Assembly: GCA_017625465.1 (NCBI GenBank)
Contig: JAGAKS010000016.1
Location: 147,034 to 211,033 of the forward strand
Reading direction: 5' to 3'
Length of the DNA stretch: 64,000 bases
Origin: Clostridia bacterium
GTDB taxonomy: Bacteria > Bacillota > Clostridia > TANB77 > CAG-508
Within the stretch, counting starts at the first letter, position 1; each line of letters opens with the position of its first letter. Of the stretch, positions 4,222-50,891 are shown one piece after another. Position numbers and translations under genes: made by a program. The notes under the pieces were generated by a model that had not been told where the DNA came from, did not search any database, and worked only from the letters and a program-made list of their open reading frames with translations.

Positions 4222-4224
4222 ACT

Positions 4225-4500
4225 GTTTCCTCCTTAAAAATTAAATTTATATGCTATCTGTTTTTTAATACAAAAAAACCTATAAGCATATAGCTTATAG
4301 GGGTAAGATTTTTCTCACGGTTCCACCCTAATATTTAACTCTTAATAGATTTGTAACGTAATCTTACAACGCCAATTTTTCAATTGGAAACTCCAAGGTA
4401 GTATTTCAAATATGTTTTCTTAAATGTGCTTTCAGCCTACGACACATTCTCTCTATAAGTAACCTTTATTTTACTTGTCCTCTTCACAGTTTACATTTTT
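4225..4500 (-). promoter_or_regulatory. T-box riboswitch leader of thrS. It has the conserved T-box sequence and a terminator/antiterminator.
   Basis: The minus strand reads AATATTAGGGTGGAACCGTGAG (plus 4314..4335), matching the AATTAGGGTGGNACCGCG T-box consensus. A terminator hairpin CCCCTATAAGC...GCTTATAGG plus a U-run lies at 4266..4303. A promoter TTGACA-17-TATTAT lies at 4501..4529 (minus). Confidence 0.7.
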
Positions 4501-7237: not shown

Positions 7238-7800
7238 TATTTCCAAATTTCTCCTTCCGTAAATTCTTTTAATGTTTGCCATTTACCATCTTTTTCAGAT
7301 GTAAGTATTTCACAATCAACTTCTGGCCATTCAATTCCAATTTCAGGATCATTATACATAATTCCTGATTCTGCACTATGATTATATACATCTGTGCATT
7401 TATATGTAAACTCTGCTTCGTCAGATAAAACTAAGAAGCCGTGAGCAAAATATGGTGGTATATAAAACATTTTCTTATTTTCTTCTGAAAGTTCAACACC
7501 AACCCATTTACCATAAGTTGAGCTATTTCTTCTTAAATCAACTGCAACATCAAAAACTCTTCCTTTTATAACTCTAACAAGTTTTCCTTGTGTATTTTCG
7601 ATTTGGAAATGCAATCCTCTTAAAACACCTTTTTTAGATTTTGATTGATTATCTTGAACAAATTCTTCTTTTATTCCAATTTCTTCAAAATCTGGTTTAC
7701 TATATGTTTCCATAAAGTACCCTCTGTTATCTCCAAATACAGTAGGTTCTATTACACAAACACCTTCAATATCAGTATCAATTCTTTTAAATTTTCCCAA
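7237..7800 (-). CDS. rfbC: dTDP-4-dehydrorhamnose 3,5-epimerase.
   Basis: Cupin-fold RmlC signature (RGLHFQ...). It is the right size and sits in operon context. Confidence 0.9.
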   Translation of the reverse strand: MGKFKRIDTDIEGVCVIEPTVFGDNRGYFMETYSKPDFEEIGIKEEFVQDNQSKSKKGVLRGLHFQIENTQGKLVRVIKGRVFDVAVDLRRNSSTYGKWVGVELSEENKKMFYIPPYFAHGFLVLSDEAEFTYKCTDVYNHSAESGIMYNDPEIGIEWPEVDCEILTSEKDGKWQTLKEFTEGEIWK

Positions 7801-7814
7801 TTTCTTTACCCCTT

Positions 7815-8726
7815 TTATTTAAATAATTCACTATTATAAATATCTTTGTATGTATCCCAATCTTGTTCAGCAACTTTTTTCAAATATTTTCCATAGTCAG
7901 TCTTTTTATATTTTTCAGCATATTCTAAAATTGTTTCTTTAGAAATCCATTCGTTTCTATAAGCAATTTCTTCTAAGCAAGCAATTTGAACACCTTGTCT
8001 TAATTCTATAGCTTTAACAAAATCTGATGCATCAGATAATCTATCTGGAGAACCTGTATCAAACCAAGCATATCCATTACCTAAAGGAATAACTTGTAAT
8101 TTTCCTTTTTCCATATAAATTCTGTTAACATCTGTAATTTCTAATTCACCTCTGTCAGAAGGTTTTATTTCTTTAGCAATTTTAACTACTTCATTATCGT
8201 AGAAATAAATTCCAGGAACTGCTAAATTTGATTTTGGAACTTCTGGTTTTTCTTCAATAGAAATAGCTTTTCCAGATTTATCAATTTCAACAACACCATA
8301 AGAAGTTGGATCTGCAACTTGATATCCAAAAATAATTCCACCTTCTTTTAATTTGCTTGCAGCTTTTAAAACTCTTTCAATTCTTGAACCATAAACCATG
8401 TTATCTCCAAGAATTAATGCTACATTATCATCTCCGATAAAATCAGCACCTAATATAAAAGCATCAGCTAGTCCAACTGGTTTTTCTTGAACTTTGTATT
8501 CAAATTTCATTCCAAATCTTGAACCATCTCCTAATAAACTTTGGAATGCTGGTAAGTGAACTGGTGTAGAGATAATTAATACCTCTCTAATTCCAGCCAT
8601 CATCAATGTTGATAATGGATAATAAATCATTGGTTTGTCATAAACTGGTAACATTTGCTTTGAAACAGCTAATGTTATTGGATATAATCTTGTGGCACTT
8701 CCACCTGCTAAAATAATACCTTTCAT
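7815..8726 (-). CDS. rfbA: Glucose-1-phosphate thymidylyltransferase.
   Basis: The N-terminus GIILAGGSATRLYPIT matches the nucleotidyltransferase signature. The likely start is the internal Met MKGIILAGG. Confidence 0.9.
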   Translation of the reverse strand: MKGIILAGGSATRLYPITLAVSKQMLPVYDKPMIYYPLSTLMMAGIREVLIISTPVHLPAFQSLLGDGSRFGMKFEYKVQEKPVGLADAFILGADFIGDDNVALILGDNMVYGSRIERVLKAASKLKEGGIIFGYQVADPTSYGVVEIDKSGKAISIEEKPEVPKSNLAVPGIYFYDNEVVKIAKEIKPSDRGELEITDVNRIYMEKGKLQVIPLGNGYAWFDTGSPDRLSDASDFVKAIELRQGVQIACLEEIAYRNEWISKETILEYAEKYKKTDYGKYLKKVAEQDWDTYKDIYNSELFK

Positions 8727-9586
8727 TATTTTAATTCCTCCTTCAAATATTCTTCTAAAGCTTTCTCCCAAGCCTTTGGATATACACCTATATTGTGTAA
8801 TTTTTCTTTTGATAATTGACTATTTTTTGGTCTGTCTGAAGAAGCAGGATTCATTTCTTTGTATTCTTCAGAAGTTACCGGATTAACTTTTGTTGCTCTT
8901 CCAGCTAATTCCATAATTTTGCATGTAAAATCATACCAAGTTGTAAAACCTTCATTTGTTGAATGATATACACCATATTCTGGTTCTTTTTCCATTATAG
9001 CTTCTATTATTTCACAAAGTGTTGTTGTACAAGTTGGGCTACCATGTTGGTCGCAAACTACACTTAATGTATCATGTGTTTCAGATAATTTAAGCATTGT
9101 CTTTACAAAGTTTTTTCCACCTAATCCATAAAGCCAAGCTGTTCTTAATATATAGTATTTTTCAGCTTTTGCTGCATTTTCTTCTCCTAGTAATTTTGTT
9201 TTACCATAAGCTGTTACTGGAGCTGGCTCCATATCTTCTGTATAAGCTTTTTCTACATCCATTTTTCCATCAAATACATAATCTGTACTAATATGAATAA
9301 GTGTACTATCTGTAGATTTTGCTGCATCTGCAATATTTTCAAGTGCTAAACCATTTACTTTATTTGCTAAATCATAATTTACTTCACATCCATCAACATT
9401 TGTATATGCTGCACAGTTAATTATGAAATCTGGTTTTACATCTTTTGCTTTTGCAAGCACTGCTTCTCTATCACAGATATCTAATGTTTGAAGTGTTGTA
9501 CCTGTAACTTCGTAGATTTTTTCTAATCTTTCTCTAAGTTCTCCTCCAAGCATTCCATCTGCTCCTATTAATAAAACCTTTTTCAT
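8726..9586 (-). CDS. rfbD: dTDP-4-dehydrorhamnose reductase.
   Basis: RmlD-like SDR with an N-terminal GxxGxxG motif. It completes the rfbDACB set. Confidence 0.85.
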   Translation of the reverse strand: MKKVLLIGADGMLGGELRERLEKIYEVTGTTLQTLDICDREAVLAKAKDVKPDFIINCAAYTNVDGCEVNYDLANKVNGLALENIADAAKSTDSTLIHISTDYVFDGKMDVEKAYTEDMEPAPVTAYGKTKLLGEENAAKAEKYYILRTAWLYGLGGKNFVKTMLKLSETHDTLSVVCDQHGSPTCTTTLCEIIEAIMEKEPEYGVYHSTNEGFTTWYDFTCKIMELAGRATKVNPVTSEEYKEMNPASSDRPKNSQLSKEKLHNIGVYPKAWEKALEEYLKEELK

Positions 9587-25791: not shown

Positions 25792-25920
25792 TATATTGTA
25801 CATATTTATTATTCATTACCCATTAAGGGGCTTAACCTAGCTTGTGCATTTTAGCTTTTTTATAACTTGAATATGTACAGTACAATATAGGTTGAGTAAC
25901 GTTTGAAAGGAGTCTTATTT

Positions 25921-26508
25921 ATGACAACACGTATTTGGTTAGACACAGTGGTACTTGCAGCGCTTGATGACGCAAAAGAGGTTCTTGAACGGCTGATTGC
26001 TGAAGGTAAGCAGTTGGTTATCGCCAACACCGCTCTGGACGTCAGAGTCTTTCAGGAGAACATCGATTGGTTTGAGGATCAGCTGGCTGAAGGCAAGATC
26101 AACATCGAAATCTGGAACACTCCGGACGAGATGGTTAGCAAAGAATTCTTCTGGAGTTCTTGCAACATGACATCTGAGCCTTCAACGGATCTGTATGAAG
26201 CAGTCGAAGACTTCCCGAATAAGGAAGCAATCCTGGACATCGCAGATCTGATTTCCGTTTATGGCATGCCGAAAGGTGATTGGGTTATGGGTCCTTGGAC
26301 ACCGCCTGCACCTTTAAGCCCTGAAATTGCCGAAGAGCTTGGAATCTCCACAGCTAGCACCAGAACTGAAGTTCTCGATGCAGCCATGAGCCAGAACAGA
26401 TTTGACCTCTTCAACATCTACAATACCGGCTATTGCACCGGTTTGGCTACGCAGCACAACTGCGACGCCCTACTCAATGTAGATGGCTCCATTACAGAGA
26501 TCGAGTAA
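25921..26508 (+). CDS. Compositionally foreign gene encoding a 195-aa acidic cytoplasmic protein of unknown function (MTTRIWLDTVVLAALDDAKEVLERLIAEGKQLVIANTALD...).
   Basis: Two 60-nt hand counts give 27/60 and 31/60 G+C, against 11/60 in the adjacent native sequence. Codons such as CTG, CCG and GGC are typical of higher-GC genomes. A consensus RBS AAAGGAG lies 8 nt before the ATG. The ORF-track start at 25903 is a TTG that lies within the RBS. Confidence 0.75.
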   Translation: MTTRIWLDTVVLAALDDAKEVLERLIAEGKQLVIANTALDVRVFQENIDWFEDQLAEGKINIEIWNTPDEMVSKEFFWSSCNMTSEPSTDLYEAVEDFPNKEAILDIADLISVYGMPKGDWVMGPWTPPAPLSPEIAEELGISTASTRTEVLDAAMSQNRFDLFNIYNTGYCTGLATQHNCDALLNVDGSITEIE

Positions 26509-26540: not shown

Positions 26541-26577
26541 CTCCCCGGACGCTATGTCTGGGGAGTGTTCTTTTTTA
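26541..26577 (+). terminator. Strong rho-independent terminator with a GC-rich stem (CTCCCCGGAC-GCTAT-GTCTGGGGAG) and a T-run.
   Basis: A 10-bp stem with one G-U pair is followed by TGTTCTTTTTT. It may also serve rnr from the opposite strand. Confidence 0.8.
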
Positions 26578-28545
26578 TATTGTTTCATCTGTTTCTGTTA
26601 CCAATTCAAATGCAATTTTTCTAATTAACTTGTTAGCCTCAATAACTCGAATTTTTACCTTATCACCAATCTTAAATACTCTATTTGTTTTTTCTCCAAC
26701 TAAGTTTTTTCTATTTTCATCATAAATATAATATTCATTAGCGCCCATGTTTTCAAATCGAATTAAACCTTCAACCGTACTTTCAAGCTCAACAAACATA
26801 CCAAAGCTTGTAATAGAAGATACTATTCCATCAAATTCTTGTCCAATCTTATCTTCCATAAATTCTGCTTTTTTAATATCTTCTGCCTCACGCTCAGCTT
26901 TTGTTGCAAGCTTCTCACAATCAGAAGATGTTTCTGCATATTTTATAGCTTTTCCTTTTAGCTCTTGCAATCTGTTTTCACTAAGATTATAACCATGCTC
27001 AATATATTCAGAAATAACTCTATGAATAAATAAATCTGGATATCTTCTAATTGGCGAAGTAAAATGACAATAATAGTTACTTGCTATACCAAAATGACCT
27101 TTATTTTCAGCTTCATATCTAGCTATTTTTAAAGTTCTAAGTATTAGTGTTGAAATTACTTTTTCATATTCTGTATCTTTAATTTTATCTAGCACTTCTG
27201 AAAAAGCTTTTGGTCTAATATTATCTTTACTCGCTTTAATTTTATAACCAATATTGAATAAAAATTTATTTGTTTCGTTGATTTTATCTAAATCTGGCTC
27301 TTCATGCACCCTATAAATAAACGGAGCTTCTAACCAATAGAATTTTTCTGCAATAACTTCATTGGCAGTAAGCATAAATTGTTCTATAATTTCGTTTGCA
27401 AAATTCAATTCATATTTTTTTACTTCTATTGCTTTTCCATTTTTATCTAAAACAATTTTACTTTCTGCTATATCTAAATTCAAATAACCTTGTTTTAAGC
27501 GTCTATCTTTCAAAATATGAGCTAATTCTTCCATATCTTTAAAACAAGATATATATTTTTCATATTTTTTAACTACTTCTTTATCTGAATTTGTAATTAT
27601 TTTATAAACATCAGAGTAACTCATTCTTTCAGTTACTCTTATAACAGATTTACAAACATCTGAAGAAATAACATTTCCGTTACCATCAATTTCCATTATA
27701 CATGAAAGTGCAAATCTATCTTCTCCTGCATTTAAGCTACATATTCCATTAGAAAGTTCAAAAGGAAGCATTGGTATAACTCTATCAAACATATATACAC
27801 TTGTACCTCTTTTTACTGCCTCTTTATCTAATACAGAATCTTCTTTTACATAGTAACTAACATCTGCAATATGAACTTCTAAGACGTATGTTCCATCTGC
27901 AGTCTTTTGAACAAAAACAGCATCATCTAAATCTTTGGCATCTTCTCCATCAATAGTAAAAATTGGATGAATATCTCTAAAATCTCTTCTGTTTTTAATA
28001 TCTTTTTTATTTATTTTTTGAGGTATTCCCATTGCTTCTAAAGTAACTGGTAAAGGAAATTCATTTGGCAAAGAAAATTCTTTTATAACACTTAGCATAT
28101 CTACACCAGCTAAGTCTATATTTCCTAGCACTTCTACAATTTCACCCTCTGCATTTTTGCCTTTTTCTGGATATTTTGTAATTTTAGCCACAACTTTATC
28201 ATTATCTCTGGCATTTAAGCATTTATTTTTTGAAATAAAAATATCTGTATCAAATCGTTTATCATCTGGCACAACAAATCCAAAATTTCTACTTTTTTGA
28301 AAAATTCCTACTACAGTATCTTTATCTCTTTTTAATATTTTAACTATTTTTCCTTCTGCTCGTCTTTCTTTAGTTTTAGGTCTAAAAATATTTATTTGAA
28401 CAGTATCTCCGTTTAAAGCTCCATTAACACTTTTAGATGGTATAAACACATCTTCCATTTCTTCGCTTTCAAATTCTACAAAGCCATATCCTTTTTCATT
28501 GGCTCTAAAAATGCCTTCATATTTTCTTTTTTTCTTATTTCCCAC
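26575..28545 (-). CDS. rnr: Ribonuclease R.
   Basis: N-terminal cold-shock/OB domains, the RNB catalytic domain and a C-terminal S1 domain are present. The arrangement secG-rnr is conserved. Confidence 0.9.
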   Translation of the reverse strand: MGNKKKRKYEGIFRANEKGYGFVEFESEEMEDVFIPSKSVNGALNGDTVQINIFRPKTKERRAEGKIVKILKRDKDTVVGIFQKSRNFGFVVPDDKRFDTDIFISKNKCLNARDNDKVVAKITKYPEKGKNAEGEIVEVLGNIDLAGVDMLSVIKEFSLPNEFPLPVTLEAMGIPQKINKKDIKNRRDFRDIHPIFTIDGEDAKDLDDAVFVQKTADGTYVLEVHIADVSYYVKEDSVLDKEAVKRGTSVYMFDRVIPMLPFELSNGICSLNAGEDRFALSCIMEIDGNGNVISSDVCKSVIRVTERMSYSDVYKIITNSDKEVVKKYEKYISCFKDMEELAHILKDRRLKQGYLNLDIAESKIVLDKNGKAIEVKKYELNFANEIIEQFMLTANEVIAEKFYWLEAPFIYRVHEEPDLDKINETNKFLFNIGYKIKASKDNIRPKAFSEVLDKIKDTEYEKVISTLILRTLKIARYEAENKGHFGIASNYYCHFTSPIRRYPDLFIHRVISEYIEHGYNLSENRLQELKGKAIKYAETSSDCEKLATKAEREAEDIKKAEFMEDKIGQEFDGIVSSITSFGMFVELESTVEGLIRFENMGANEYYIYDENRKNLVGEKTNRVFKIGDKVKIRVIEANKLIRKIAFELVTETDETI

Positions 28546-28607
28546 AATTAATAACCTTTCTAAAAAACAAAAAGGGCTAGCAAATTGCCGCCCCTAAATA
28601 TTTCTAA

Positions 28608-28856
28608 TTAAACAACATAAATAATTCCTAAAGCTACATTTAATATAACAAATACTACTGCAAGTATTATTGTTGCTCTTTTTATTTTTCCTTCTTTAGT
28701 TTTACCTTTATTTTTTTCATAAAAGTTGCTAGCAGAAGCTCCCATAACTGTACCTGATGCTCCACTATCTTCTTTTGATTGTTTAGTTATTAAAAATATT
28801 AGTGCAACACAAACGATTAAATATATTGCAATGATTATATTTTTTACTATTTCCAT
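28608..28856 (-). CDS. secG: Preprotein translocase subunit SecG.
   Basis: An 82-aa protein with two TM helices and a Gly-rich loop. It lies upstream of rnr as in many Firmicutes. Confidence 0.7.
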   Translation of the reverse strand: MEIVKNIIIAIYLIVCVALIFLITKQSKEDSGASGTVMGASASNFYEKNKGKTKEGKIKRATIILAVVFVILNVALGIIYVV

Positions 28857-28941
28857 TTAAAAATTCCTCCAAGACTAATTTTGTCAGCTATTATAGTTTA
28901 CCATAAGAAATTATAAAAATCAATATTTTTACACAAATATT

Positions 28942-29574
28942 TTAAACTTCTACACATTTTACAGCAAGTCTTTCACTTTTATTTGCTGTACAAGTAATCA
29001 ATGTTACTTCTTTCTTTCCATCCGTCATTTGACTTGTACAAGAGGAATCATCTTCACTGATTACATCTTTTGCATACACTTTGTATGACACATCATTACC
29101 TTTTGTATCCATAACTTTAACAATATCACCAATAACAAGGTTTGAAAGTTTGCTAAAATATTTAGAATTACCATAATTATGACCTGCTACACAAAAATTT
29201 CCAACTTCATTTGGATCTGCTCCCCAAAATTTAGTTGGTGCAACCTTTAAATTTTCTGCTGAAGAATCTTTAAGTACTGGATATTTTACTCCTAACTTAT
29301 CTATTGAAATTATAGCTATAATTCTTCCTTGCTTACTATATTTATCAATTTCGTCTAATTCTGTATTATTTTTAACTTCATTTTTGGTAACATTTTCTTT
29401 TGCAGGTGGATTATTAGCAATAGTATTTTCCACTTCTTCTAGTTCTGCATATACTTCTGAATATAAAACTGGATCGTAACCTTCACCAGATTTTATTACT
29501 AAAAAACCTATTCCTGCGCAAACTATTATACTTATTAAAATAACATATATGAAGCTTTTATCGTTTTGTTTCAT
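28942..29574 (-). CDS. Sortase (class A/B-like transpeptidase).
   Basis: An N-terminal TM anchor is followed by the catalytic TLITC motif (KEVTLITCTA) and a downstream Arg. Confidence 0.8.
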   Translation of the reverse strand: MKQNDKSFIYVILISIIVCAGIGFLVIKSGEGYDPVLYSEVYAELEEVENTIANNPPAKENVTKNEVKNNTELDEIDKYSKQGRIIAIISIDKLGVKYPVLKDSSAENLKVAPTKFWGADPNEVGNFCVAGHNYGNSKYFSKLSNLVIGDIVKVMDTKGNDVSYKVYAKDVISEDDSSCTSQMTDGKKEVTLITCTANKSERLAVKCVEV

Positions 29575-30055
29575 CTTTCATTCCTACTTTTTTATTATAC
29601 ATAGAAAATGCAATTAATATTGCTGATGCTACAAAAATTGTTACTAAAAATGTATTTTTTAAAGTATAATTGCTTCCAGTATTAGGTAATTTACCATTAG
29701 ATTTTGAAGTATCTTTTCCTACTGGTAATGTATTTCTTATTTTTGACCAATCTACTTCGTTTGTAGTGTTAGTTGTATTTGTTGTATTTGTTGTGTTGGC
29801 TGTATTAGTAGTATTTGTATTTGTATCTGTATTAGTATTTGTGTCTGCTGTTGTAGTATTAGTTGTATTAGTATCAGCCGGTGTTGTATTAGTATTAGTA
29901 TCTACATTTTCTGTTGTTGTATTTGTTGGGTCTTCAACTGTTGCATCAACTCTAGTAACAAACAAATTACTTACAGTTGCTAAAACTATTGCTACTGTAA
30001 ATATAACCAAAACTTTTTTAAATCCGCTCATATATAAATCTCCTATCTTATCCAT
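29558..30055 (-). CDS. Small Thr/Asn-rich cell-wall-anchored protein with an LPNTG sorting signal.
   Basis: A signal/TM N-terminus is followed by TNT/TNTT repeats, then GKLPNTGS, a hydrophobic segment and a KK...KR tail. It overlaps the sortase gene by 17 nt, which indicates an operon. Confidence 0.75.
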   Translation of the reverse strand: MDKIGDLYMSGFKKVLVIFTVAIVLATVSNLFVTRVDATVEDPTNTTTENVDTNTNTTPADTNTTNTTTADTNTNTDTNTNTTNTANTTNTTNTTNTTNEVDWSKIRNTLPVGKDTSKSNGKLPNTGSNYTLKNTFLVTIFVASAILIAFSMYNKKVGMKDETKR

Positions 30056-30156
30056 ATATTATAATTTTACAGAATATGACAAAGAATTGCAATAAAATTT
30101 AAGTTACATTTATATTACAAAAGCCTAACACTTTTGTGTTAGGCTAAGTTATGGTT

Positions 30157-32934
30157 CTATTTTAAATTTTCGCTACATCTATGACAAACACCTGGATGTT
30201 CATGATCCTCTCCTACAGTCTCTAAATACATCCAACATCTCTCACATTTTTGACCTGGTGCTTTTTCTACTCTTACTCCAATTTCTACTTCTTCGTCTTC
30301 GTTTCTTCTATTTCTTTGAACCTCAACAGCAGATACAATAAATATTTCAGCTAAGACACTTTCATTTTCTTTTAAGAAATCGTATTCTTCACCTTCTGCA
30401 AATAGTAAAACTTTTGCTTCAAGAGAAAGACCTATTTCTTTATTTGCTCTAGCTTCTTCAAGCTTTTTAGCGACAATATCTTTAACTTTAATTAATCTAG
30501 ACCATTTTAAAGCTATTGCTTCATTTTCATATTTGCTATTTACTTTGGGATAATATTCAAGCATAACACTTTCTGTGTTTTCACCTTTTTTATGTGGCAT
30601 ATAACTCCAAATTTCTTCTGCTGTAAAGCATGTCATTGGAGCTAAAATTCTAACTAAAGCTGATAAAATTTCATACATAGTTGTTTGAGCAGCTCTTCTT
30701 TCTAATGAATTTGGTTTTGATGTATAAAGTCTATCTTTTATAATATCTAGGTAGAAAGCACTCATATCAACTACACAGAATTGATTTATAGCTTGATATG
30801 CATTGTGGAAATCATAACTGTCATAAGCATCTGTACAATCTTTAATTAGCTTATTAAGTTTTGTTAATGCCCATTTATCAATTTCTTGTAAATCTTCATA
30901 AGCAACTGGATTATCAACATCAAAATCGTTAATATTTCCTAAAATATATCTTGCAGTATTTCTTATTTTTCTATAAACTTCTGTAACTTGTTTAATTATA
31001 TTTTTAGAAACACTAACATCTGATTTATAATCTGATGATAATACCCAAAGCCTTAATACATCTGCACCTGATTCTTTTATAATTTCTTGTGGTGCTACAA
31101 CATTTCCAACAGATTTTGACATTTTTCTGCCTTGCTCATCTACTGTATAACCATGTGTTAAAACTTCTTTATAAGGTGCTACACCTTTTGTTGCAACTGA
31201 TGTTAAAAGTGAAGATTGGAACCATCCTCTGTATTGGTCACTTCCCTCTAAATACATATTTGCTGGTGGAAGTCCACGTTCTGCAACAACTGATTCATGT
31301 GTTGAACCAGAATCAAACCAAACATCCATAATATCTGTTTCTTTTTTGAATTCTGTACATCCACAAGCAGAACATTTTGCTCCTTCTGGCATAAGTTCTT
31401 TTTCTGTTAAACCAAACCAAGCATTTGAACCTTGTTCTTTAAATATTTTTTGAATTTTTTCTAAGCTTTCATCTGTAACATATTCTTTTTCACATTCTTT
31501 ACAATAGAAAACAGGTATTGGAACTCCCCAAGTTCTTTGACGAGAAATACACCAATCGTTTCTATCTTCAACCATTTTAGAAATTCTTTCTTCTCCCCAA
31601 GCTGGATACCATTTAACTGTTTTTATTGCATCTAATGTTTCTTTTCTAAATCCATCAACAGAAGCAAACCATTGATTTGTTGCTCTGAATATAACTGGAT
31701 TTTTACATCTCCAGCAATGTGGATATGAGTGATTTACTTTTTGTGCAGCAAGTAAGAAGCCGTTTTCATCTAACCATTTGATAATTTCTTTATCAGATTT
31801 GGCATAATACATATCTTTAAATGGTCCAGCACCTTCGCCTCTTTGAACACCTTTGCTATCAACAGTAACTATAATATCCAAATTATTTTTTAATCCACAC
31901 AAATAGTCTTCTTTACCATAACCAGGAGCTGTATGAACTGCACCTGTACCAGTGCCTAATTCAACTAAAATTGTATCATCACTACCTAAAACAACTACTG
32001 AATCTCTATCTAAGAATGGATGTCTACACATAACACCTTCTAGTTCTGTTCCATCAAATTCTTTTTCTATTTTATATTCTTCAATTTCTGCTATTTTCAT
32101 AACACTTTCTACTAATTCACTAGCCATAATTAGTTTTTCTTTGCCTGTATTTACAATAGCATATTTATAATCTGGTCCAATAGTAATAGCAAGGTTTCCT
32201 GGTAAAGTCCAAGGTGTTGTTGTCCAAATTACAACATAAGTATCTTTTGCATCAAATAATCCTTTACTGTCTTTTACAGGGAATTTAACATAAGCAGTAT
32301 TTGAATTTACATCTTTATATTCAATTTCTGCTTCAGCTAAAGCTGTTTCACAATCAGTACACCAATAAACTGGTTTTAAACCTTTATATATGTATCCTTT
32401 TTGATACATTTTTGAAAACACACCAATTTGTTTTGCTTCCATTTGTGGTTGATATGTTATGTATGGATTTTCCCAATCTCCTAATATACCTAAACGTTTG
32501 AAACCTTCTGTTTGTTTGTCTTTATAATCCATAGTAAATTTTTTACATGTATCTCTAAATTCATTTACTGGTATTGCATCTCTATTTAAACCTAATTTTT
32601 CTATTGCTTTCTTTTCAGTAGGCATTCCATGTGTATCATAACCAGGAATAAATGGTGTGTAAAAACCTTTTAAGTTTTTGTATCTTACAATAGTATCTTT
32701 TAATACTTTATTTAAAGCATGTCCTATATGAATTTCACCATTAGCATAAGGTGGGCCATCATGTAAAACAAAAGGCTCCTTTCCTTCATTTTTCTTTAAC
32801 ATTTTTTCATATAAGCCATTTTCAAAAACTCTTGATTGTGTTTTGGGTTCATTTTCTGGTAAATTTGCTCTCATTGGGAAATCTGTTTTTGGCAAATTTA
32901 ATGTTTGGCTATAATCTTGCTTTTCTTCACTCAT
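30157..32934 (-). CDS. ileS: Isoleucyl-tRNA synthetase.
   Basis: HIGH (HIGHALN) and KMSKS motifs are present, with a C-terminal Zn-finger Cys pair. The length is 925 aa. Confidence 0.95.
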   Translation of the reverse strand: MSEEKQDYSQTLNLPKTDFPMRANLPENEPKTQSRVFENGLYEKMLKKNEGKEPFVLHDGPPYANGEIHIGHALNKVLKDTIVRYKNLKGFYTPFIPGYDTHGMPTEKKAIEKLGLNRDAIPVNEFRDTCKKFTMDYKDKQTEGFKRLGILGDWENPYITYQPQMEAKQIGVFSKMYQKGYIYKGLKPVYWCTDCETALAEAEIEYKDVNSNTAYVKFPVKDSKGLFDAKDTYVVIWTTTPWTLPGNLAITIGPDYKYAIVNTGKEKLIMASELVESVMKIAEIEEYKIEKEFDGTELEGVMCRHPFLDRDSVVVLGSDDTILVELGTGTGAVHTAPGYGKEDYLCGLKNNLDIIVTVDSKGVQRGEGAGPFKDMYYAKSDKEIIKWLDENGFLLAAQKVNHSYPHCWRCKNPVIFRATNQWFASVDGFRKETLDAIKTVKWYPAWGEERISKMVEDRNDWCISRQRTWGVPIPVFYCKECEKEYVTDESLEKIQKIFKEQGSNAWFGLTEKELMPEGAKCSACGCTEFKKETDIMDVWFDSGSTHESVVAERGLPPANMYLEGSDQYRGWFQSSLLTSVATKGVAPYKEVLTHGYTVDEQGRKMSKSVGNVVAPQEIIKESGADVLRLWVLSSDYKSDVSVSKNIIKQVTEVYRKIRNTARYILGNINDFDVDNPVAYEDLQEIDKWALTKLNKLIKDCTDAYDSYDFHNAYQAINQFCVVDMSAFYLDIIKDRLYTSKPNSLERRAAQTTMYEILSALVRILAPMTCFTAEEIWSYMPHKKGENTESVMLEYYPKVNSKYENEAIALKWSRLIKVKDIVAKKLEEARANKEIGLSLEAKVLLFAEGEEYDFLKENESVLAEIFIVSAVEVQRNRRNEDEEVEIGVRVEKAPGQKCERCWMYLETVGEDHEHPGVCHRCSENLK

Positions 32935-32949
32935 AACATTTATCTCCTT

Positions 32950-33230
32950 TTCTTTTTATTTACAAAAAACAAAAAGGTCACTCGCCTATAGGACGAATGA
33001 CCGTGTTACCACCTAAATTCAAAAATTATTTAATAATAATTTTCCTCTAATTTCTTTAACGCAGAATTACGAATATGTTTACTTTAATTTTCAACATATT
33101 AGCTCTAAGGTGATAATAAATAAGTTGTTTTCTGCTAAAATCTCACCAACCTTTAGCTCTCTTTAGATACTTCTTATTTACCGTGTCCTTGTCTTTGCTT
33201 TTTAATATTTACATAAATATATTACCACTT
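32950..33230 (-). promoter_or_regulatory. T-box riboswitch leader of ileS.
   Basis: The minus strand reads AATTTAGGTGGTAACACGG, which matches the T-box consensus. A terminator hairpin GGTCATTCGTCCTATAGGCGAGTGACC at 32974..33000 is followed by a U-run. A promoter TTGACA-18-TAATAT lies at about 33212..33246. Confidence 0.7.
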
Positions 33231-43728: not shown

Positions 43729-46056
43729 TTAAAATTTACTATATTTAGTTTTAGGATACAAATTTTCTTCTAGATACTCATCTGTAAACTTAGCTTCTGC
43801 TTCTTTTTTAGCTTTTTCCTCTTCTTTTCTAATTCGTTCTTCTTCACGAATTTTAGCAAGTTCCGCTTCCTTTTTAGCCTTTTCTTCTGCCATTATCGCT
43901 GCTTTTTTGGCTCTTTCTTCAGCTATAATCGCTGCTTGCTTTGCTTTTTCTTCGTTAGCCAATCTTTTTTCTTCTGCTCTTTTTAATTTTTCTTCTTCTT
44001 TTTTTATGCGTTCTTCTTCTCTAATTTTCGCAAGTTCAGCATTTCTTATAGCTTTGGCTTCTGATTTAGCCTTATTTTCCTCTGCTTTAGTAACTTTATA
44101 TTCCTGATATTTTTTTGAAAATTCTTCTTTTTTTATTTTCATGTTTTCTGCTAATTCATTTTTCTTAACCAGCGCTTTTTCTTTAAATATATTAACTTTT
44201 TTATTCCATTCTTCTTTTCTTTGTGCCTTCTTTTCTAAATTTTCTTTTCGTTTAACAGCATTTTCTTCTTCTTTTTTCTTTTTCATTTCCATTTTCAAAG
44301 CTAATTCTTGTTCTTTTTTTAATTTATCTTCTTCACGTTTTTTAGCAAGTTCTGCTTCCCTTTTAGCTTTTTCTTCTGCCATTATTGCATCTTCTTTGGC
44401 TTTTTCTTCTGCTATAATTTTAGCTTGCTTTGACTTTTCTTCTGCAATGATTTGTGCTTGTTTAGCTTTTTCTTCTTTCTCTTGTTGCTTTTTCTGAATT
44501 TTTTCTATTTGGGCTTGTTCTTCGAATTGTATCTGTTCAAGTGTTTTGGCTGATGAAAGTCTTTTATTAAGAGTTTTTATCTTTCTTAAAAGATTTTTAA
44601 ACCATTGTTTTACCATATCTATTTTTTCTTTTTCAAACTTTATGCACTTTTCATACCATGACAATTTAATTTCATTAGAATAATAATAATTACTTATATA
44701 TAAATCATTTTCCATTGAAACTCCATTTAAAACAGTTCCAATTACTTTACCACCAACATTTTCTATATCTGTTTTTGCTTTTATTAAATTATCTTTTTTA
44801 GTTTTATTATATGATGCTACTAATAAAGTTTTTACAAGTAGTCTACTTAACAATAAAGAATCTGTAATTGGAAGAATAGGAGCACCATCAAAAATTACTA
44901 CATCATAATATTGCTTTAAATTATCAATTAGCTCCACTAATTTTGTTGATTCTAATAACTCTGCTGGATTTGGTGGAACACTACCAGCTGTTATTACATC
45001 TAAATTCTCTATATTAGTCTTTTTGATATATTCACCTAAATGCCAGTTTATTTCCATTCCATTAGAATCTATATTAGAAATATAATTAGAAAGTCCATTT
45101 TTATTTGGAATATTAAATACCAAGGCTTGTCTTCCACGTCTCATATCTGAATCTACTAAAACAACTTTTTTACCTGCTTGTGCAAAAGTAATAGCTAAAT
45201 TTGCTGATACATAACTTTTTCCTTCGCCAGCTAAACAACTAGTAACTAACAAAGTTTGTGCCCCTTTTGTATTTATACTGCTAAATTGCACATTCGTTCT
45301 TAGTGTTCTAAAAGTTTCTGATATTATCGATTTATTCTCTGTAAAAGTAATAATTTCACTTTTTTTCTTTTTGTCCAAAGGAATAGTTATCAAGTTTTTT
45401 ACTTTTAATATTTCTTCTATATCTTCTGCACTTTTTACTGTATTATCTAAAACATTATATATAAATACATACGTAGCAGCAATAATAATTCCTAAACAAA
45501 TAAATATTGTAATATCTCTACTATGATTTATATTATATGGCTCTGTTGGAACTGTTGGTTCATCTATAACATAAACATTATCAATTTTATAAATTTCTTT
45601 TACTTGTTCTGAAAAAACTTCTACTACTTTTGTAACAATATTTTTAGCCACTTGTCCACTAGGATTTGAAACTGATATTGCTAATAAATCTGAATTATTT
45701 ACTCTATCAACTGAAACTGATTCCATAAGCATTTCAAGGCTTATATCTACACCTAAATTATCTTTTACTTGCTCCATAATAGTTCTACTTTTAACTAATT
45801 CGCTATAAGTTAAAATCAAACTTGAATTAAGTGTTAAATCAGACTCTGTTATAGTACCATTATTATCTAAAGTTTGCCCATTAACAGAAGAACTAACTTT
45901 TCCCAAAATAATAGTAGCAGTAGAACTATATAGTGGTTTAGTATAATTATATGTATATACTATTCCTACAATAATTGAAATAACAATAATAGCAATAAGA
46001 CTTATCTTTTTTCTCTTTATTACTGTTAATAAATCTTTTAAATTTAGCTCTTCCAT
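43729..46056 (-). CDS. Capsular/exopolysaccharide co-polymerase fusion of a Wzz chain-length domain and a BY-kinase (tyrosine autokinase), with a roughly 310-aa Lys/Glu/Ala-rich repetitive C-terminal extension.
   Basis: Two TM segments flank a periplasmic Wzz-like region. Walker A (GEGKSYVSANLA), A' (VVLVDSDMRRG) and B (VVIFDGAP) motifs are present, and a Tyr cluster SNYYYSNE is followed by KAKQA/IIAEEKAK repeats. Confidence 0.85.
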   Translation of the reverse strand: MEELNLKDLLTVIKRKKISLIAIIVISIIVGIVYTYNYTKPLYSSTATIILGKVSSSVNGQTLDNNGTITESDLTLNSSLILTYSELVKSRTIMEQVKDNLGVDISLEMLMESVSVDRVNNSDLLAISVSNPSGQVAKNIVTKVVEVFSEQVKEIYKIDNVYVIDEPTVPTEPYNINHSRDITIFICLGIIIAATYVFIYNVLDNTVKSAEDIEEILKVKNLITIPLDKKKKSEIITFTENKSIISETFRTLRTNVQFSSINTKGAQTLLVTSCLAGEGKSYVSANLAITFAQAGKKVVLVDSDMRRGRQALVFNIPNKNGLSNYISNIDSNGMEINWHLGEYIKKTNIENLDVITAGSVPPNPAELLESTKLVELIDNLKQYYDVVIFDGAPILPITDSLLLSRLLVKTLLVASYNKTKKDNLIKAKTDIENVGGKVIGTVLNGVSMENDLYISNYYYSNEIKLSWYEKCIKFEKEKIDMVKQWFKNLLRKIKTLNKRLSSAKTLEQIQFEEQAQIEKIQKKQQEKEEKAKQAQIIAEEKSKQAKIIAEEKAKEDAIMAEEKAKREAELAKKREEDKLKKEQELALKMEMKKKKEEENAVKRKENLEKKAQRKEEWNKKVNIFKEKALVKKNELAENMKIKKEEFSKKYQEYKVTKAEENKAKSEAKAIRNAELAKIREEERIKKEEEKLKRAEEKRLANEEKAKQAAIIAEERAKKAAIMAEEKAKKEAELAKIREEERIRKEEEKAKKEAEAKFTDEYLEENLYPKTKYSKF

Positions 46057-46195: not shown

Positions 46196-47062
46196 TTATT
46201 TTAAAAATTTTGTTTTAATAAAACCACATCTTTGACATAAATCTTCAACTAATTCTTTCTTTTCAAATCCTGAAATTATGGCTTTTGCTCTATCACTTTC
46301 GATAATATCTTTTAAAGTGGTAGTAAATATATTTCCCAAACAAATATTGCTATCTGCATCTAAACAACAAGGCACTACATCACCGTTAGATAAAATTGCA
46401 ATTTGATTTCTCAATCCATAACATTTTCCAGTTTTAGCAATAACATCACCATTAATATCTGGCCACACAAACTCTATATCTTGATTCAAAAAAATATTTT
46501 TATCTAATTCAATAAAGTCATTTTTCTTCGCTTTTTTAAAAATATTTTGAATACCATATTTTTCACCAAGTTTTATCAAAACATTTTTATTTATATCATT
46601 GTTTTCTATTTTATCTAAATTCCATAACCTATATGAAATGATAATATTAGTGTTTTGCTGTATTTTATCAACACCTTCAAAAACATTTTCTAAATATTTT
46701 TCTTCATCAACATTATTTTGCTCAGCAGAGTGTAAAGAAATATTAATTTGTCTAATACTCTTTGAATTTAAAATAACTTCTATTTTTTTGCTTAATAGAG
46801 TAGCATTTGTTGTAATATTAACTTTCAAATTATACTTTTCAGCAATATCTAAAATTTCTTTTAAATTTGGATGTAAGAAAGGCTCACCTTTAACGTGCAA
46901 AGCAATTAAATTTGTATAACCAATTACTTCTTTAACTACCTTTTCAAATTCTCCTACCTGCATAAATCTATCTGCTCTTGTTGTTTTACTACAAAATGAA
47001 CAATTTAGATTACACATATTTGTTATTTCTATATATACTTTTAAAAATCTTCTTTTTTCCAT
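46196..47062 (-). CDS. Radical SAM protein with a C-terminal SPASM/twitch Cys cluster, 288 aa.
   Basis: CNLNCSFC matches the CX3CX2C motif near the N-terminus. C-terminal CCLDADSNICLGN...CQRCG is characteristic of a SPASM auxiliary cluster. Confidence 0.75.
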   Translation of the reverse strand: MEKRRFLKVYIEITNMCNLNCSFCSKTTRADRFMQVGEFEKVVKEVIGYTNLIALHVKGEPFLHPNLKEILDIAEKYNLKVNITTNATLLSKKIEVILNSKSIRQINISLHSAEQNNVDEEKYLENVFEGVDKIQQNTNIIISYRLWNLDKIENNDINKNVLIKLGEKYGIQNIFKKAKKNDFIELDKNIFLNQDIEFVWPDINGDVIAKTGKCYGLRNQIAILSNGDVVPCCLDADSNICLGNIFTTTLKDIIESDRAKAIISGFEKKELVEDLCQRCGFIKTKFLK

Positions 47063-47119: not shown

Positions 47120-47515
47120 TTAGATATTATAATCTGTAACTTTTTTGTAAGCATAAACTGCTGAACCTACAAATGCTATTGCTATTAAAACAATTGATGT
47201 TGTATTTGCACTACCTGCATAAGGTAATTTGCTTGAATTTGTTGATGAATTATAGCTACTTGTATTTGTTTTGTTTGTAGCTCCTACAACATTTGATTTG
47301 TTTGTATTTGTAGTTGTATTTAACTTAGTAGCATTAGTATTTGTTGTATTTGATTTATTAGTATTTGTATTAGATTTATTTGTATTTGAAGCGCCAATTT
47401 GAACTGTACCTGATTCTGATGTATTATCAGAAGATAATTCAGTTGCAAGTGAACTTGCGCTACTTATAACTAATATTAATAATACAATTGAAATTACACT
47501 TAAAAATTTTTTCAT
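47120..47515 (-). CDS. Small secreted Asn/Thr/Ser-rich surface protein with a C-terminal sorting-like signal (SKLPYAGS, then a TM segment, then KK).
   Basis: A signal peptide is followed by NT(N)K repeats. It is a paralogue-like counterpart of the LPNTG protein at 29558..30055. Confidence 0.6.
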   Translation of the reverse strand: MKKFLSVISIVLLILVISSASSLATELSSDNTSESGTVQIGASNTNKSNTNTNKSNTTNTNATKLNTTTNTNKSNVVGATNKTNTSSYNSSTNSSKLPYAGSANTTSIVLIAIAFVGSAVYAYKKVTDYNI

Positions 47516-47677: not shown

Positions 47678-48772
47678 TTATACATTAAATCTAAATAAAA
47701 CAATATCTCCATCTTGCATAATATATTCTTTTCCTTCTGAACGAATTAAACCTTTTTCTCTTGCTGTGACCATTGAACCATCACATTTCATCAATTCATC
47801 AAAAGAAACAACCTCTGCTCTAATAAATCCTCTTTCTATATCTGAATGAATTTTCCCAGCAGCTTGTGGCGCTTTTGTTCCAATTTTAATAGTCCACGCT
47901 CTTACCTCTGGTTCTCCAGCTGTTAAGAATGACATAAGTCCTAACAGTTTATAACTTGCCTTTATTAGTTTATCTAGACCAGATTCTTCAAGTCCAAGAG
48001 CTTCTAACATTTCTTGCTTATCTTCATTTTCTAAAGTGCTAAGTTCTTCTTCTATTTTTACACATAAAGGAATAACTTCCGCATTTTCATTTTTTGCAAA
48101 TTCTTTTACTTTAACAAAATTTTCATTAGTTTCAGGATTTGAAAGCTCATTCTCTGAAACATTGGCAACATACATAATTGGCTTTAAAGTAAGCAAGAAT
48201 GCTTCTTTTAAAACTTCTTTTTCTTCATCTGTATATGTTAAAGAACGAGCAGCTTTTCCTGCTTCTAAGGCTGTTTTTACTTTTTCCAAAGTTTCTACTT
48301 CGAAACCATACTTTTTATCAGCTTTTAACATCTTTCTAGCTCTATCTAGTCTTTTCTCTATTGTTTCCAAATCTGCAAAAACTAATTCTAAATTTATTGT
48401 TTCAATATCTCTAAGCGGATCAACACTGCCATCAACATGTACAATATTAGAATTTTCAAAACATCTAACAACTTCTAATATGCTATCTACTTCTCTAATA
48501 TGTGACAAAAATTTATTTCCTAAACCTTCACCCTTGCTAGCGCCTTTTACTAATCCAGCAATATCAACAAATTCTACTACTGCTTTTGTTACTTTTTGAG
48601 GTTGATAAATTTCTGCAAGTTTATCAACCCTTTCATCTGGAACTGGTACAACTCCAACATTTGGTTCAATTGTACAAAATGGATAATTTGCACATTCTGC
48701 TCCTGCCTTTGTTATACTGTTAAAAAGTGTACTTTTTCCAACATTTGGAAGTCCTACAATTCCTATTTTCAT
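47678..48772 (-). CDS. ychF: Redox-regulated ATPase YchF (Obg-family GTPase).
   Basis: The N-terminal G1 motif GLPNVGKST, a TGS C-terminal domain and a length of 364 aa are present. Confidence 0.9.
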   Translation of the reverse strand: MKIGIVGLPNVGKSTLFNSITKAGAECANYPFCTIEPNVGVVPVPDERVDKLAEIYQPQKVTKAVVEFVDIAGLVKGASKGEGLGNKFLSHIREVDSILEVVRCFENSNIVHVDGSVDPLRDIETINLELVFADLETIEKRLDRARKMLKADKKYGFEVETLEKVKTALEAGKAARSLTYTDEEKEVLKEAFLLTLKPIMYVANVSENELSNPETNENFVKVKEFAKNENAEVIPLCVKIEEELSTLENEDKQEMLEALGLEESGLDKLIKASYKLLGLMSFLTAGEPEVRAWTIKIGTKAPQAAGKIHSDIERGFIRAEVVSFDELMKCDGSMVTAREKGLIRSEGKEYIMQDGDIVLFRFNV

Positions 48773-48782
48773 ATTTAACTCC

Positions 48783-50891
48783 TTATCTACCTATCTTTTT
48801 ACAATATTTTTCAAACATTGCTGCAGCTTCAGCTCTGGTTGCTGTACCTTTTGGATTCAAAGTCTTATCTTCATTGCCAGTAATTACGCCAGCTCCTACT
48901 GCCCATTTCATTTGATTTAATGCATAATTTGATACACTACTTTTATCTTTAAATGAATTTAACTCATTTATATGCCAGGTTGATTTTCCTTTATATTTAG
49001 CATAATTATATAATATTATAGCTAAATCTTGTCTAAGTACACTATCACCTGCACCAAAAGTACCGTTTTCATATCCATTAACAATTTTATTATCTGTTGC
49101 CCATTTTACTGCTTTATAATAGTATTTACGATTATCTTGAACATCTGGGAACTTTGGTGTTCCATTAACTGTAGGCTCACCTTCCATTCTATAAAGAATT
49201 GTTACTAACATCCCTCTTGAAAGCTCATTGCCTGGTACAAAAGTTGTTTTTGATGTTCCTGTAATTATGTAGTTTTTACTACAATATTTTACTGCTTCAT
49301 AATACCAACTATCTGGTGCTACATCTGTAAAAGATAAATCTGTTGTCTTTACATAATATACACCCTTAACACCCGTACCATCTTTAGCTGTAGCTGTTAT
49401 TGTAGATTTTCCAAGAGCTTTTCCTGTTACATTTCCAGAAGCATCTACTGTTGCAACATTTGTATCACTACTACTCCATGTTACATTTTTATTTGTTGCA
49501 TTACTTGGAGATACATTAGCTGTTAATTTTGTAGTTGTACCCAAAGGTACAATTGAATTTCCAGTTATATTTATTGAACTTACTAAAGTTCTATCTATAT
49601 ATTCATTTGGTGTTGAACTACCAGAATTACTTCCTTGTCCTATTGTTTGTATGAAATTTCTAGCAACATAACCTGTAAGACCTTTTCCATCAGTTCCATC
49701 AGCAATAACTAAGTCCCAGTAATATCCTCCACTTTGCACATTTCCTCTTGATAATACTTTTACATTTACTCCTTGTGCAATACTGCCTATGTGTGCAGAA
49801 GTTATATCTTGTCTTGAACGCACTTTTAATCCACCATTTGCTGTAACTTTTGCTATATCATAAGTTATTGAATTTACAGTAGCCGTACTAGGTCTTGATT
49901 GAGCTGTTACAGGCATATTAGTATATAAAGGAATTATAAAAGTATGGTTTCCAGTTATTTGCCCATTTATTTTATAGTTATCTCTTAATTTTCTTCCTTC
50001 ATTTTCAGCTGATAAAATACTTTGCGCATATTGATGTGAAAACAAACTTGGTTCATGTACTACATTAAATTTTTGATAATAACATGTGTTTTGTCCTCTA
50101 CCTATATACTCCTCTTTACAGAATTTTGCTCCACCTAAGATTGATAATCTTTTAGTTGTCCAACCTTCTTCTGCTGCTTTATTTGTACCATTTGTGATTA
50201 TAGCAGATATACTATTTCCATAAGCCTCAATATTAAAAAAATTATAATATGTAACACCATTTTTTACAACGCCATCACTTAAAGTAGAACCATCTCTACC
50301 ATGCTCTGTAAGCATTTTAGCAACTAAATAATAGCCATTTATGTTATATGCTTGGCTAGCCTCTACTATTGCTCTAGCACACTCCTCGTGATCTAAGAAA
50401 GTACCAGCAATAACTCTTACTACATCATCATAAGTAACATCTGGTGATTCTAAACTTTTAAATTGAAAAACACTATCATCAGAAATAGAATTTCTAGGAT
50501 CCATCATATATTTTAAAGCTTCCATTGAAGCACAACGTAAACTTCCATTATCATAAGATTTTGTGCCACAAACTGGGCAAAACCACATTCCAGAATATTT
50601 TTCGCCTACATTAAATAAATTTTTTGGAGAAGCACCATGCCCTTGATATTCACGAATTATCGCTTCATTCCAATCAATTCCTGTATTATAGAATTGAAAA
50701 TTATAACCTGAATGTGCATTTTTTAAATTATTAACCATACCAGAAATTCCTGGACACATTCTTTCTGCATCACTTATTGATACATATTGTCCTGCATTAA
50801 CAATATTTCCAAGCCCTTCAAAAGTTGATAATATTATATATAAAGACATTATTAAAATTAGAGTAATTGAAACTATTCTTCTTAATTTCAT
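48783..50891 (-). CDS. Secreted cell-wall hydrolase with a GH73-like glucosaminidase domain, an SH3b-like domain, a Big_2 domain and three C-terminal SLH repeats.
   Basis: A signal peptide is present. MLTEHGRDGS...YYNFFNIEAY resembles the GH73 catalytic region. VTWSSSDTNVATV indicates Big_2. There are three roughly 55-aa SLH motifs. Confidence 0.65.
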   Translation of the reverse strand: MKLRRIVSITLILIMSLYIILSTFEGLGNIVNAGQYVSISDAERMCPGISGMVNNLKNAHSGYNFQFYNTGIDWNEAIIREYQGHGASPKNLFNVGEKYSGMWFCPVCGTKSYDNGSLRCASMEALKYMMDPRNSISDDSVFQFKSLESPDVTYDDVVRVIAGTFLDHEECARAIVEASQAYNINGYYLVAKMLTEHGRDGSTLSDGVVKNGVTYYNFFNIEAYGNSISAIITNGTNKAAEEGWTTKRLSILGGAKFCKEEYIGRGQNTCYYQKFNVVHEPSLFSHQYAQSILSAENEGRKLRDNYKINGQITGNHTFIIPLYTNMPVTAQSRPSTATVNSITYDIAKVTANGGLKVRSRQDITSAHIGSIAQGVNVKVLSRGNVQSGGYYWDLVIADGTDGKGLTGYVARNFIQTIGQGSNSGSSTPNEYIDRTLVSSINITGNSIVPLGTTTKLTANVSPSNATNKNVTWSSSDTNVATVDASGNVTGKALGKSTITATAKDGTGVKGVYYVKTTDLSFTDVAPDSWYYEAVKYCSKNYIITGTSKTTFVPGNELSRGMLVTILYRMEGEPTVNGTPKFPDVQDNRKYYYKAVKWATDNKIVNGYENGTFGAGDSVLRQDLAIILYNYAKYKGKSTWHINELNSFKDKSSVSNYALNQMKWAVGAGVITGNEDKTLNPKGTATRAEAAAMFEKYCKKIGR

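Follow-up and report, generated by a model that had tools for sequence, protein, structure and literature searches.

Two overlapping genes on the minus strand of a 64,000-nucleotide (nt; 64-kb) stretch of Clostridia bacterium contig JAGAKS010000016.1, hereafter the window, encode a sortase and a small LPNTG protein, referred to as the cargo, and we consider it likely that they form a working, translationally coupled sortase-substrate pair with its own promoter between ileS and secG. In the direction of transcription, ileS (30157..32934) is followed by the cargo open reading frame (ORF; 29558..30055), the sortase gene (28942..29574), secG (28608..28856) and the gene for RNase R (rnr, 26575..28545), in a window with a G+C content of 27.9%. 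Among NCBI identical proteins, the window sortase corresponds to MBO5398116.1 and the window IleS to MBO5398118.1. An earlier reading of this DNA, made from the letters alone (the sequence-only reading), had reported the gene pair, and its account and interpretation are both supported in part: the two minus-strand ORFs do share 17 nt, whereas the LPNTG gene, which had been placed downstream of the sortase, lies upstream (5') of it on the coding strand. The features of the unit are:

28942..29574, minus strand: sortase gene, 210 amino acids (aa), recognized by Pfam Sortase (PF04203), a His/Cys/Arg triad and a fold model
29558..30031, minus strand: cargo gene, encoding a headless, Thr/Asn-rich LPNTG protein as a precursor of 157 aa (at its longest, the ORF runs to 30055, 165 aa)
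29582..29585, minus strand: sortase ribosome-binding site AGGA, located within cargo tail codons
30039..30044, minus strand: cargo ribosome-binding site AGGAGA, 7 nt before the ATG at 30031, kept in relatives L081 and L084
30064..30092, minus strand: sigma-70-type promoter candidate for the cargo-sortase unit, TTGCAA, 17 nt, TAAAAT
30122..30145, minus strand: intrinsic terminator of ileS, 10-bp stem followed by TTTTGT, kept in L081

The terminator is the only terminator-like site found in 28400..30400 (shuffle mean 0.4) and separates ileS from the cargo-sortase unit. The promoter candidate agrees with 9 of 12 consensus positions and is a consensus match only, with 13 such sites in the region compared to 10.8 expected, and its placement between the terminator and the ribosome-binding site makes it plausible. 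The ATG at 30031 is the second in-frame ATG of the cargo ORF. Because the homologues all begin there with MSG(L/F)KK and because AGGAGA precedes this ATG by 7 nt, the cargo most likely comprises 157 aa; the 165 aa claimed before are the longest ORF only. The sortase ribosome-binding site and the start of the sortase reading frame both lie within the last cargo codons, which accounts for the almost invariant cargo tail KKVGM(K/T)DETKR, and this overlap argues for translational coupling. It measures 17 nt in the window, L081, L085-L087, L089, L091, L092, L094 and several near-identical strains, and 14 nt in L083, L090 and L105, three relatives of greater divergence. The view of the pair as one translationally coupled unit of a sortase with a single substrate of the LPXTG type is thus supported.

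Read in the numbering of the 157-aa precursor, the cargo consists of the following parts:

29942..30031, minus strand: predicted signal peptide, residues 1-30, MSGFKKVLVIFTVAIVLATVSNLFVTRVDA, with cleavage presumed after VDA
residues 31-34: short acidic start TVED
29759..29929, minus strand: Thr/Asn tract, residues 35-91 (57 aa, with 30 T and 16 N), whose codons are nearly all ACA, ACT or AAT
29690..29758, minus strand: pre-anchor segment EVDWSKIRNT-LPVGKDTSKSNGK, residues 92-114, seen in alignment A1 and in P0141
29675..29689, minus strand: LPNTG sorting motif, residues 115-119, followed by Ser, read from the sequence
29561..29653, minus strand: hydrophobic membrane segment TFLVTIFVASAILIAFSM (residues ~127-144) and charged tail YNKKVGMKDETKR (residues 145-157)

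These are the parts that the sequence-only reading had named (a signal peptide, Thr/Asn repeats, GKLPNTGS, a membrane segment and a KK tail), although the repeat region, claimed to span about 90 aa, measures 57 aa. The order LPNTG, 7 residues, an 18-aa hydrophobic stretch and YNKKVGMKDETKR, all within the last ~40 residues, is that of LPXTG proteins. Seventeen homologues of 132-171 aa were collected; across the 18 sequences of alignment A1, the L, P, T and G of the sorting motif are invariant, and relatives carry LPKTGS or IPKTGS. The putative signal peptide (K5K6, a hydrophobic stretch, then VDA) is modelled as a helix by AlphaFold and is nearly invariant among homologues that are 39-97% identical overall, and the DWS(K/Q)(I/V/L)RNT motif of the pre-anchor segment is common to most of the family. 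AlphaFold gave a predicted confidence (pLDDT) below 50 over residues 37-98 and no folded domain; the only helices are two terminal ones and one of five residues at DWSKI (ORF residues 103-107). The earlier description of a minimal stalk without domains therefore holds. No family was reached by the cargo in searches of Pfam, NCBIfam and PDB.

Two side observations concern the pre-anchor region. Cargo residues VDWSKIRNTLPVGKDTSKSNGKLP (29690..29761) resemble the "LTWTKYNNTIPxxSDTTSTNGRIPLG" repeat units of large multi-repeat proteins (P0175, P0177-P0187): a phmmer search with the C-terminal 68 aa matched repeated "SPDGLTWTKYNNTIPxxSDTTSTNGRIPLG" units with E-values of 1e-3 to 3e-8, summed over 3-7 stretches, and the pattern common to both is W-x-K-x-x-N-T-[LI]-P...D-T...G-[KR]-[LI]-P. 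This likeness is probably one of short motif or composition and not homology. In addition, relatives have plain RNTLPKTGS where the window clade has the 29690..29761 segment, which seems to represent either a 13-aa insertion or a duplicated sorting motif with a degenerate first copy, LPVG.

The window contains a single sortase (28942..29574), in which a linker of ~55 aa with little conservation joins an N-terminal membrane helix to the catalytic domain (residues 86-210). It matches PF04203 over residues 89-209 with 84.6 bits (cut-off 26.6) and just exceeds the cut-off of TIGR01076 sortase_fam (39.9 compared to 39.35 bits). The TLITC motif reported by the sequence-only reading is present at 28990..29004, and H132, C195 (in TLITC) and R202 are invariant in the 26 sequences of alignment A2. 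The AlphaFold model is a sortase barrel with a catalytic-domain pLDDT of ~62-89. Foldseek paired it with many sortase structures at probability 1.00 and with TM-scores on the target of up to 0.74; the best-superposed structures were L. rhamnosus SrtA (TM-score 0.74, 30% identity) and L. monocytogenes SrtA, with TM-scores on the target of 0.73-0.74 and root-mean-square deviations (rmsd) of 2.5-3.0 Å. C. perfringens SrtD (28% identity) was also among the fold matches, and its structure 4D70 was the best sequence match in PDB (46 bits, E 3.4e-11).

The class of the enzyme is less clear-cut. The overlapping upstream gene bears LPNTGS, a signal of the LPxTGS/LPNTA type expected for class D. The class D models NF033746 and NF058671 scored 39 bits against a cut-off of 165 and 48.7 against 140, respectively; the class C model NF033745 scored 55.1 against 160, the class E, F and GN models NF033747, NF033748 and TIGR03784 scored 55.2 against 160, 24.1 against 166 and 47.4 against 158, and no class A model was among the NCBIfam matches. 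Since each NCBIfam class cut-off fails, the sortase is filed here, as far as such profile scores go, without a class assignment. From what is known of the sortase family, it is predicted to be a transpeptidase for LPXTG-type signals.

Following established sortase biology (reviewed in PMC3297441), export by Sec, C-terminal retention, cleavage and wall linkage would proceed as follows. Sec would export the 157-aa precursor, and the C-terminal hydrophobic segment together with the KK tail would hold it in the membrane. The co-expressed membrane sortase (His132, Cys195, Arg202) would then cut LPNTGS between Thr and Gly and, through Cys195, transfer the product, expected to comprise ~88 aa after predicted signal-peptide and sortase cleavage, to a peptidoglycan precursor. 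The anchored product would be a disordered, acidic, Thr/Asn-rich stalk that ends in the short conserved DWSKIRNT segment.

In all relatives with a sortase at least 52% identical to that of the window, the pair is flanked by ileS on its upstream side and by secG-rnr on its downstream side, as far as the contigs extend, and the clade holding this slot shares IleS identities of 85-99% (genus level). The module evolves faster than its neighbours: where IleS is ~87-91% identical, the sortase is 52-78% and the cargo 39-51% identical. More distant sortases were collected in a GTDB genome scan of species-representative genomes of uncultured gut Clostridia; among the matches listed, these are at most 58% identical, in the catalytic domain only, and stand in unrelated contexts, with ileS, secG and rnr within 6 kb of none of 80 more distant sortases. 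A HMMER scan of the C-terminal 68 aa against 1.84 billion representatives returned 18 matches, about six of them true family members. As judged from these matches, the cargo family appears small and lineage-restricted.

What the relatives keep is the anchoring module, composed of the Thr/Asn stalk, usually DWSxxRNT, (L/I)PxTGS, the membrane segment and the sortase-overlapping tail. A head is absent from the window clade, L090, L092 and L094 (132-164 aa). By contrast, L083 (P0138-P0140) has a head of ~120 aa in a protein of 261 aa, L091 (P0141) a head of ~215 aa with a different signal peptide in a protein of 356 aa, and L105 (P0176) a head of ~340 aa in a protein of 415 aa. BLASTP comparisons of P0141 with P0176 and of P0138 with P0141 revealed similarity in the C-terminal anchor region only and none in the heads. 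The cargo would hence represent the headless form of a lineage-specific family in which a conserved anchoring module carries either no head or unrelated heads.

The explanation that survives best beside a working pair is that the cargo gene is a decaying remnant, the stalk of a former adhesin whose head was lost, kept only for the sortase ribosome-binding site and start codon it contains, while the sortase serves other proteins such as a second candidate substrate in the window, a 131-aa LPYAG protein described below. We regard this as unlikely, even though relatives at the same locus do carry heads, the tail is most conserved precisely where it overlaps the sortase translation signals, and one relative has dispensed with the module. 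In this relative (L084, IleS 89% identical), the region 3863-4259 shows a clean deletion that begins just behind the signal peptide and takes in the sortase to its end; an ORF of 50 aa that retains the conserved signal peptide is what now lies between ileS and secG. L084, this deletion variant, was the single locus returned by a metagenome scan with the cargo alignment. Apart from this deletion, which also removed the sortase, no frameshifted or truncated copy occurs in ~20 contigs. Moreover, the signal peptide and the LPxTG and membrane segment lie outside the overlap, yet in a codon alignment anchored on the LPxTGS motif, the ratio of nonsynonymous to synonymous substitution rates (dN/dS) was 0.23-0.39 for the cargo signal peptide and sorting signal, compared to 0.02-0.16 for the sortase catalytic domain, and both cargo parts are nearly invariant in at least four diverged headless lineages. 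The headless gene is under purifying selection and is not a fragment. The sequence-only reading had named a larger adhesin in homologues, of which the cargo would be a fragment, as evidence that would count against it; larger headed proteins do exist at the same locus, but the headless form is intact and selected.

The distribution of heads points in the same direction. On a neighbour-joining tree of the sortases, calculated without support values and with partial sequences included, the headed L091 is interleaved with headless lineages, which implies that heads were gained or lost more than once, so that headlessness is not a single recent loss. We therefore reject the idea of one derived clade comprising all headless forms.

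A second explanation, which concerns the stalk itself, is that the Thr/Asn tract is a slippage-prone contingency repeat through which the stalk expands and contracts rapidly and varies in size within populations. The sequence-only reading had proposed this from what looked like a near-periodic array. Tandem Repeats Finder reported overlapping imperfect arrays in 29760..29875 with periods of 6, 9, 12, 18, 27 and 48, 60-84% matches and scores of 50-115. However, in a test with 2000 codon-order shuffles of the tract, the autocorrelation at lags 3-48 was equalled or surpassed in 3-97% of the shuffles, and the longest perfect tandem of 23 nt (period 9) compared to a shuffle mean of 16.7 (p ~0.10), with a period-6 maximum of 16 nt. 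The periodicity is thus no stronger than that of the codon-shuffled tract; it is compositional, a consequence of ACA/ACT/AAT codon usage, with no true repeated unit.

Comparison of natural alleles likewise did not reveal rapid size variation. Among 12 contigs carrying the exact sortase protein of the window, six from independent metagenome samples (L096, L097, L099, L101, L103, L104) diverge from the window by 0-0.6% over 1.4-3.7 kb and encode the identical 157-aa cargo, without any indel and with at most one synonymous change; sequencing runs with the 157-aa allele include SRR12529196, SRR25400504 and SRR27277137. For a second clone with a 149-aa allele, four samples are identical to one another over 1.5-4.4 kb. 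Alleles of the species do vary in length (142, 146, 149, 152/153, 157 and 161 aa), among strains whose sortases share at least 96% identity, with indels restricted to the tract and a tract substitution density about twice that of the flanks, but the lengths differ only between strains whose flanking DNA is ~3-6% divergent. The size-variable stalk that had been predicted is therefore found among alleles of the species and not between close strains. One allele owes its form to recombination instead: L102, compared with window positions 28800..30700, is a mosaic with its breakpoint in the Thr/Asn tract, 5.6-9.4% divergent upstream (ileS end, intergenic region, signal peptide and tract) and 0-0.5% divergent downstream (cargo C-terminus, sortase and spacer). 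Without the tract, the upstream difference is 5.6-8.6%, and between the cargo C-terminus and the sortase end it is 0.2-0.5%.

Because close strains are identical and length changes appear only at a divergence of a few percent, rapid slippage is not supported, and we consider the contingency-repeat explanation improbable. With perfect tandems of at most 23 nt and no tract change among the six and the four close samples, the tract lacks the properties of a simple-sequence contingency locus, and since all units are multiples of 3, on/off switching is impossible. On a strain-to-species timescale, this low-complexity region is prone to indels and recombination; it is not a contingency repeat. Slippage acts in a different manner in Bifidobacterium breve, where sortase-dependent pilus loci are reported to have an ON/OFF replication-slippage switch (PMC9187656). 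The two loci resemble each other in that a sortase-linked surface structure of a gut commensal is concerned and repeat-mediated variation is at issue; in contrast to the switch, the indels of the window family are in frame, its perfect repeats do not exceed 23 nt and its close strains are invariant.

Two further explanations fare worse still. If the cargo were a subunit of a pilus-like polymer and the sortase a class C polymerase linking stalks head to tail, this would fit with several class C sortases among the top Foldseek matches and with the class C model as one of the two best NCBIfam class matches. Yet that model is reached with 55 bits compared to the required 160, class C structures superpose at an rmsd of 11-14 Å over the full length while the matches at 2.5-4 Å cover the catalytic barrel and are to enzymes of classes A, D and E, the cargo lacks a folded pilin domain and a conserved lysine (many homologues have Q in place of the K of DWSK), and there is one substrate gene here as compared to two or three in pilus loci, which together make a pilus very hard to credit. 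Just as remote is a role of the upstream gene product as an accessory membrane factor that protects the sortase, like actinobacterial SafA, and is not its substrate: genetic linkage of a small membrane protein to a housekeeping sortase is reported elsewhere (PMC9282373), and the cargo gene is tightly coupled to the sortase, but the cargo has every element of a sorting signal, its L, P, T and G being invariant, relatives bear large extracellular heads on the same module, and the FPW motif through which SafA is reported to act is missing from the cargo sequence.

Several points weigh against a working sortase-substrate pair with a wall-anchored product. The curated anchor models Pfam Gram_pos_anchor and TIGR01167 did not match the cargo at E up to 0.1, so its putative sorting signal rests on motif and architecture, and as the sortase reaches no class cut-off, its likely specificity is read from the neighbouring gene. 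The loss of the sortase and most of the cargo gene in L084 means that the module is dispensable in at least one lineage. In addition, a chain of 88 aa may not reach past a thick wall, which renders surface exposure uncertain, and among the ~30 ORFs scanned (see below), no linked gene supports glycosylation of the stalk.

A motif scan of the window revealed a second candidate substrate ~17 kb from the cargo:

47120..47515, minus strand: second candidate substrate, 131 aa, with signal peptide, Thr/Asn/Ser-rich tract, LPYAG, membrane segment and YKKVTDYNI tail

The LPNTG protein had been described as the only cargo of the sortase; this is true within the operon and not clearly true within the window, and the sortase may serve both proteins. 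The anchor region of the LPYAG protein is 59% identical to that of P0137 (LPSTG; locus L107). P0137 and a similarly built protein at L011:6774-7145 (LPKTG), for which BLASTP gave no significant similarity, are each encoded convergently to a sortase ~43% identical to that of the window, which suggests that small stalk-only sortase substrates recur in this group. Neither the exact 157-aa cargo nor the 131-aa LPYAG protein had an identical entry in the protein collection searched. The LPYAG gene is flanked by 46196..47062 (minus strand), whose product we take to be a YchF-like GTPase, and by a gene for a radical SAM/SPASM enzyme (47678..48772, minus strand); a small secreted protein beside a SPASM maturase is an odd pairing, which may be coincidental.

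With regard to glycosylation, a Pfam scan of ~30 larger window ORFs, covering the window to ~54 kb, detected no glycosyltransferase or LCP genes. The only glycan-related genes seen among the scanned ORFs, neither of them linked to the cargo, were a four-gene rmlABCD-type cluster for dTDP-rhamnose synthesis (6266..9586, minus strand), ~20 kb from the cargo, and a gene for a 775-aa Wzz/ATPase- (kinase-)like protein with a long, Lys/Glu-rich repetitive C-terminal half (43729..46056, minus strand). Glycosylation of the stalk, or a hydrophilic surface layer made of it, is a speculation by analogy. The Thr-rich stalk of the Streptococcus mutans adhesin Cnm is O-glycosylated (bioRxiv 10.1101/2021.06.09.447825), and GspA of Actinomyces oris is a sortase-anchored LPXTG protein glycosylated by an LCP enzyme (PMC6381275), its main known property being that it is glycosylated. 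The cargo shares with both a low-complexity segment rich in hydroxy amino acids, which in those proteins lies between a functional head and the LPXTG anchor. It differs from them in that they are larger and have an identified glycosylation enzyme, and in that Cnm has a folded collagen-binding head whereas the window protein is a stalk only. We regard the comparison as one of possible functional analogy and not of homology.

The closest parallel to the pair itself is found in C. perfringens, where the sortase CpSrtD (PDB 4D70) shares an operon with a hypothetical wall-anchor protein, CPE_RS01465, that ends in LPQTGS; LPNTGS and LPQTGS are treated as class D signals, and CpSrtD strongly prefers LPQTGS among four motifs that include LPNTGS (PMC4498605). 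In both cases, one sortase and one LPxTGS substrate make up an operon, with LPNTGS in the window and LPKTGS in its relatives. In view of this precedent, the claim that the window harbours an unusual surface module does not stand. The two differ in that sequence similarity is low, the class D models remain far below their cut-offs, and the window cargo is a 157-aa Thr/Asn stalk without domains whose gene overlaps that of the sortase by 17 nt. As in the class A sortases of Firmicutes (PMC3297441), the window enzyme is a membrane-anchored Cys transpeptidase by prediction, with a His/Cys/Arg triad and TLxTC, and like their substrates the cargo combines LPXTG with a predicted signal peptide, a hydrophobic segment and a basic tail; class A enzymes, however, are usually unlinked to their many substrates, whereas the window sortase has one substrate in the same translational unit. 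The cargo also resembles the EF2685/EF0750 family of Enterococcus (NF053819; profile of 105 aa) as a very small substrate made up mostly of low-complexity sequence and anchor, but is not a member of it (16.1 bits compared to a cut-off of 47, E 0.012).

Further features of the window were recorded as side observations. An ORF of 201 aa at 25903..26508 (plus strand), on the strand opposite to rnr, has a G+C content of 46-49% compared to a window average of 28%; no Pfam family scored above cut-off, and ORFs of similar length occupy the equivalent place in L081 (197 aa) and L083 (195 aa). Two T-box leaders, 32986..33204 and 4296..4496 (both minus strand), scored 110.9 and 96.3 bits (gathering score 93); the first precedes ileS and the second a class II tRNA synthetase gene (2449..4221) that looks like the one for threonyl-tRNA synthetase. 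Finally, 48783..50891 (minus strand) encodes a 702-aa wall protein in which three SLH domains are accompanied by a Big_2 domain and a weak match to glucosaminidase, which suggests that the organism uses non-covalent SLH anchoring besides sortase anchoring.

For the biology of this lineage, the pair is an ordinary sortase-plus-substrate operon of uncultured gut Clostridia, and its value is mostly descriptive. It serves to define a small, lineage-specific family of wall-anchored proteins whose anchor module is conserved while heads vary or are absent, and it offers a worked example of a slippage-looking Thr/Asn low-complexity tract that is stable between close strains. Of mild interest is the combination of a selected headless form with exchangeable heads on a fixed anchor-plus-sortase cassette and a recombination breakpoint in the tract. 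The L102 mosaic, the three unrelated heads, the interleaved tree and the purifying selection on the headless form are the grounds, none of which demonstrates it, for a bolder and rather doubtful reading in which the ileS-secG locus would be a modular display cassette with a fixed anchor, a private sortase and heads that are interchanged or absent through recombination in the tract. Its headless product would then be no degenerate adhesin, but a functional, possibly glycosylated, mucin-like wall polymer, a kind of surface brush. Should the headless stalk turn out to be such a surface polymer and to be glycosylated, it would be moderately interesting with regard to the construction of the outer surface in gut Firmicutes.

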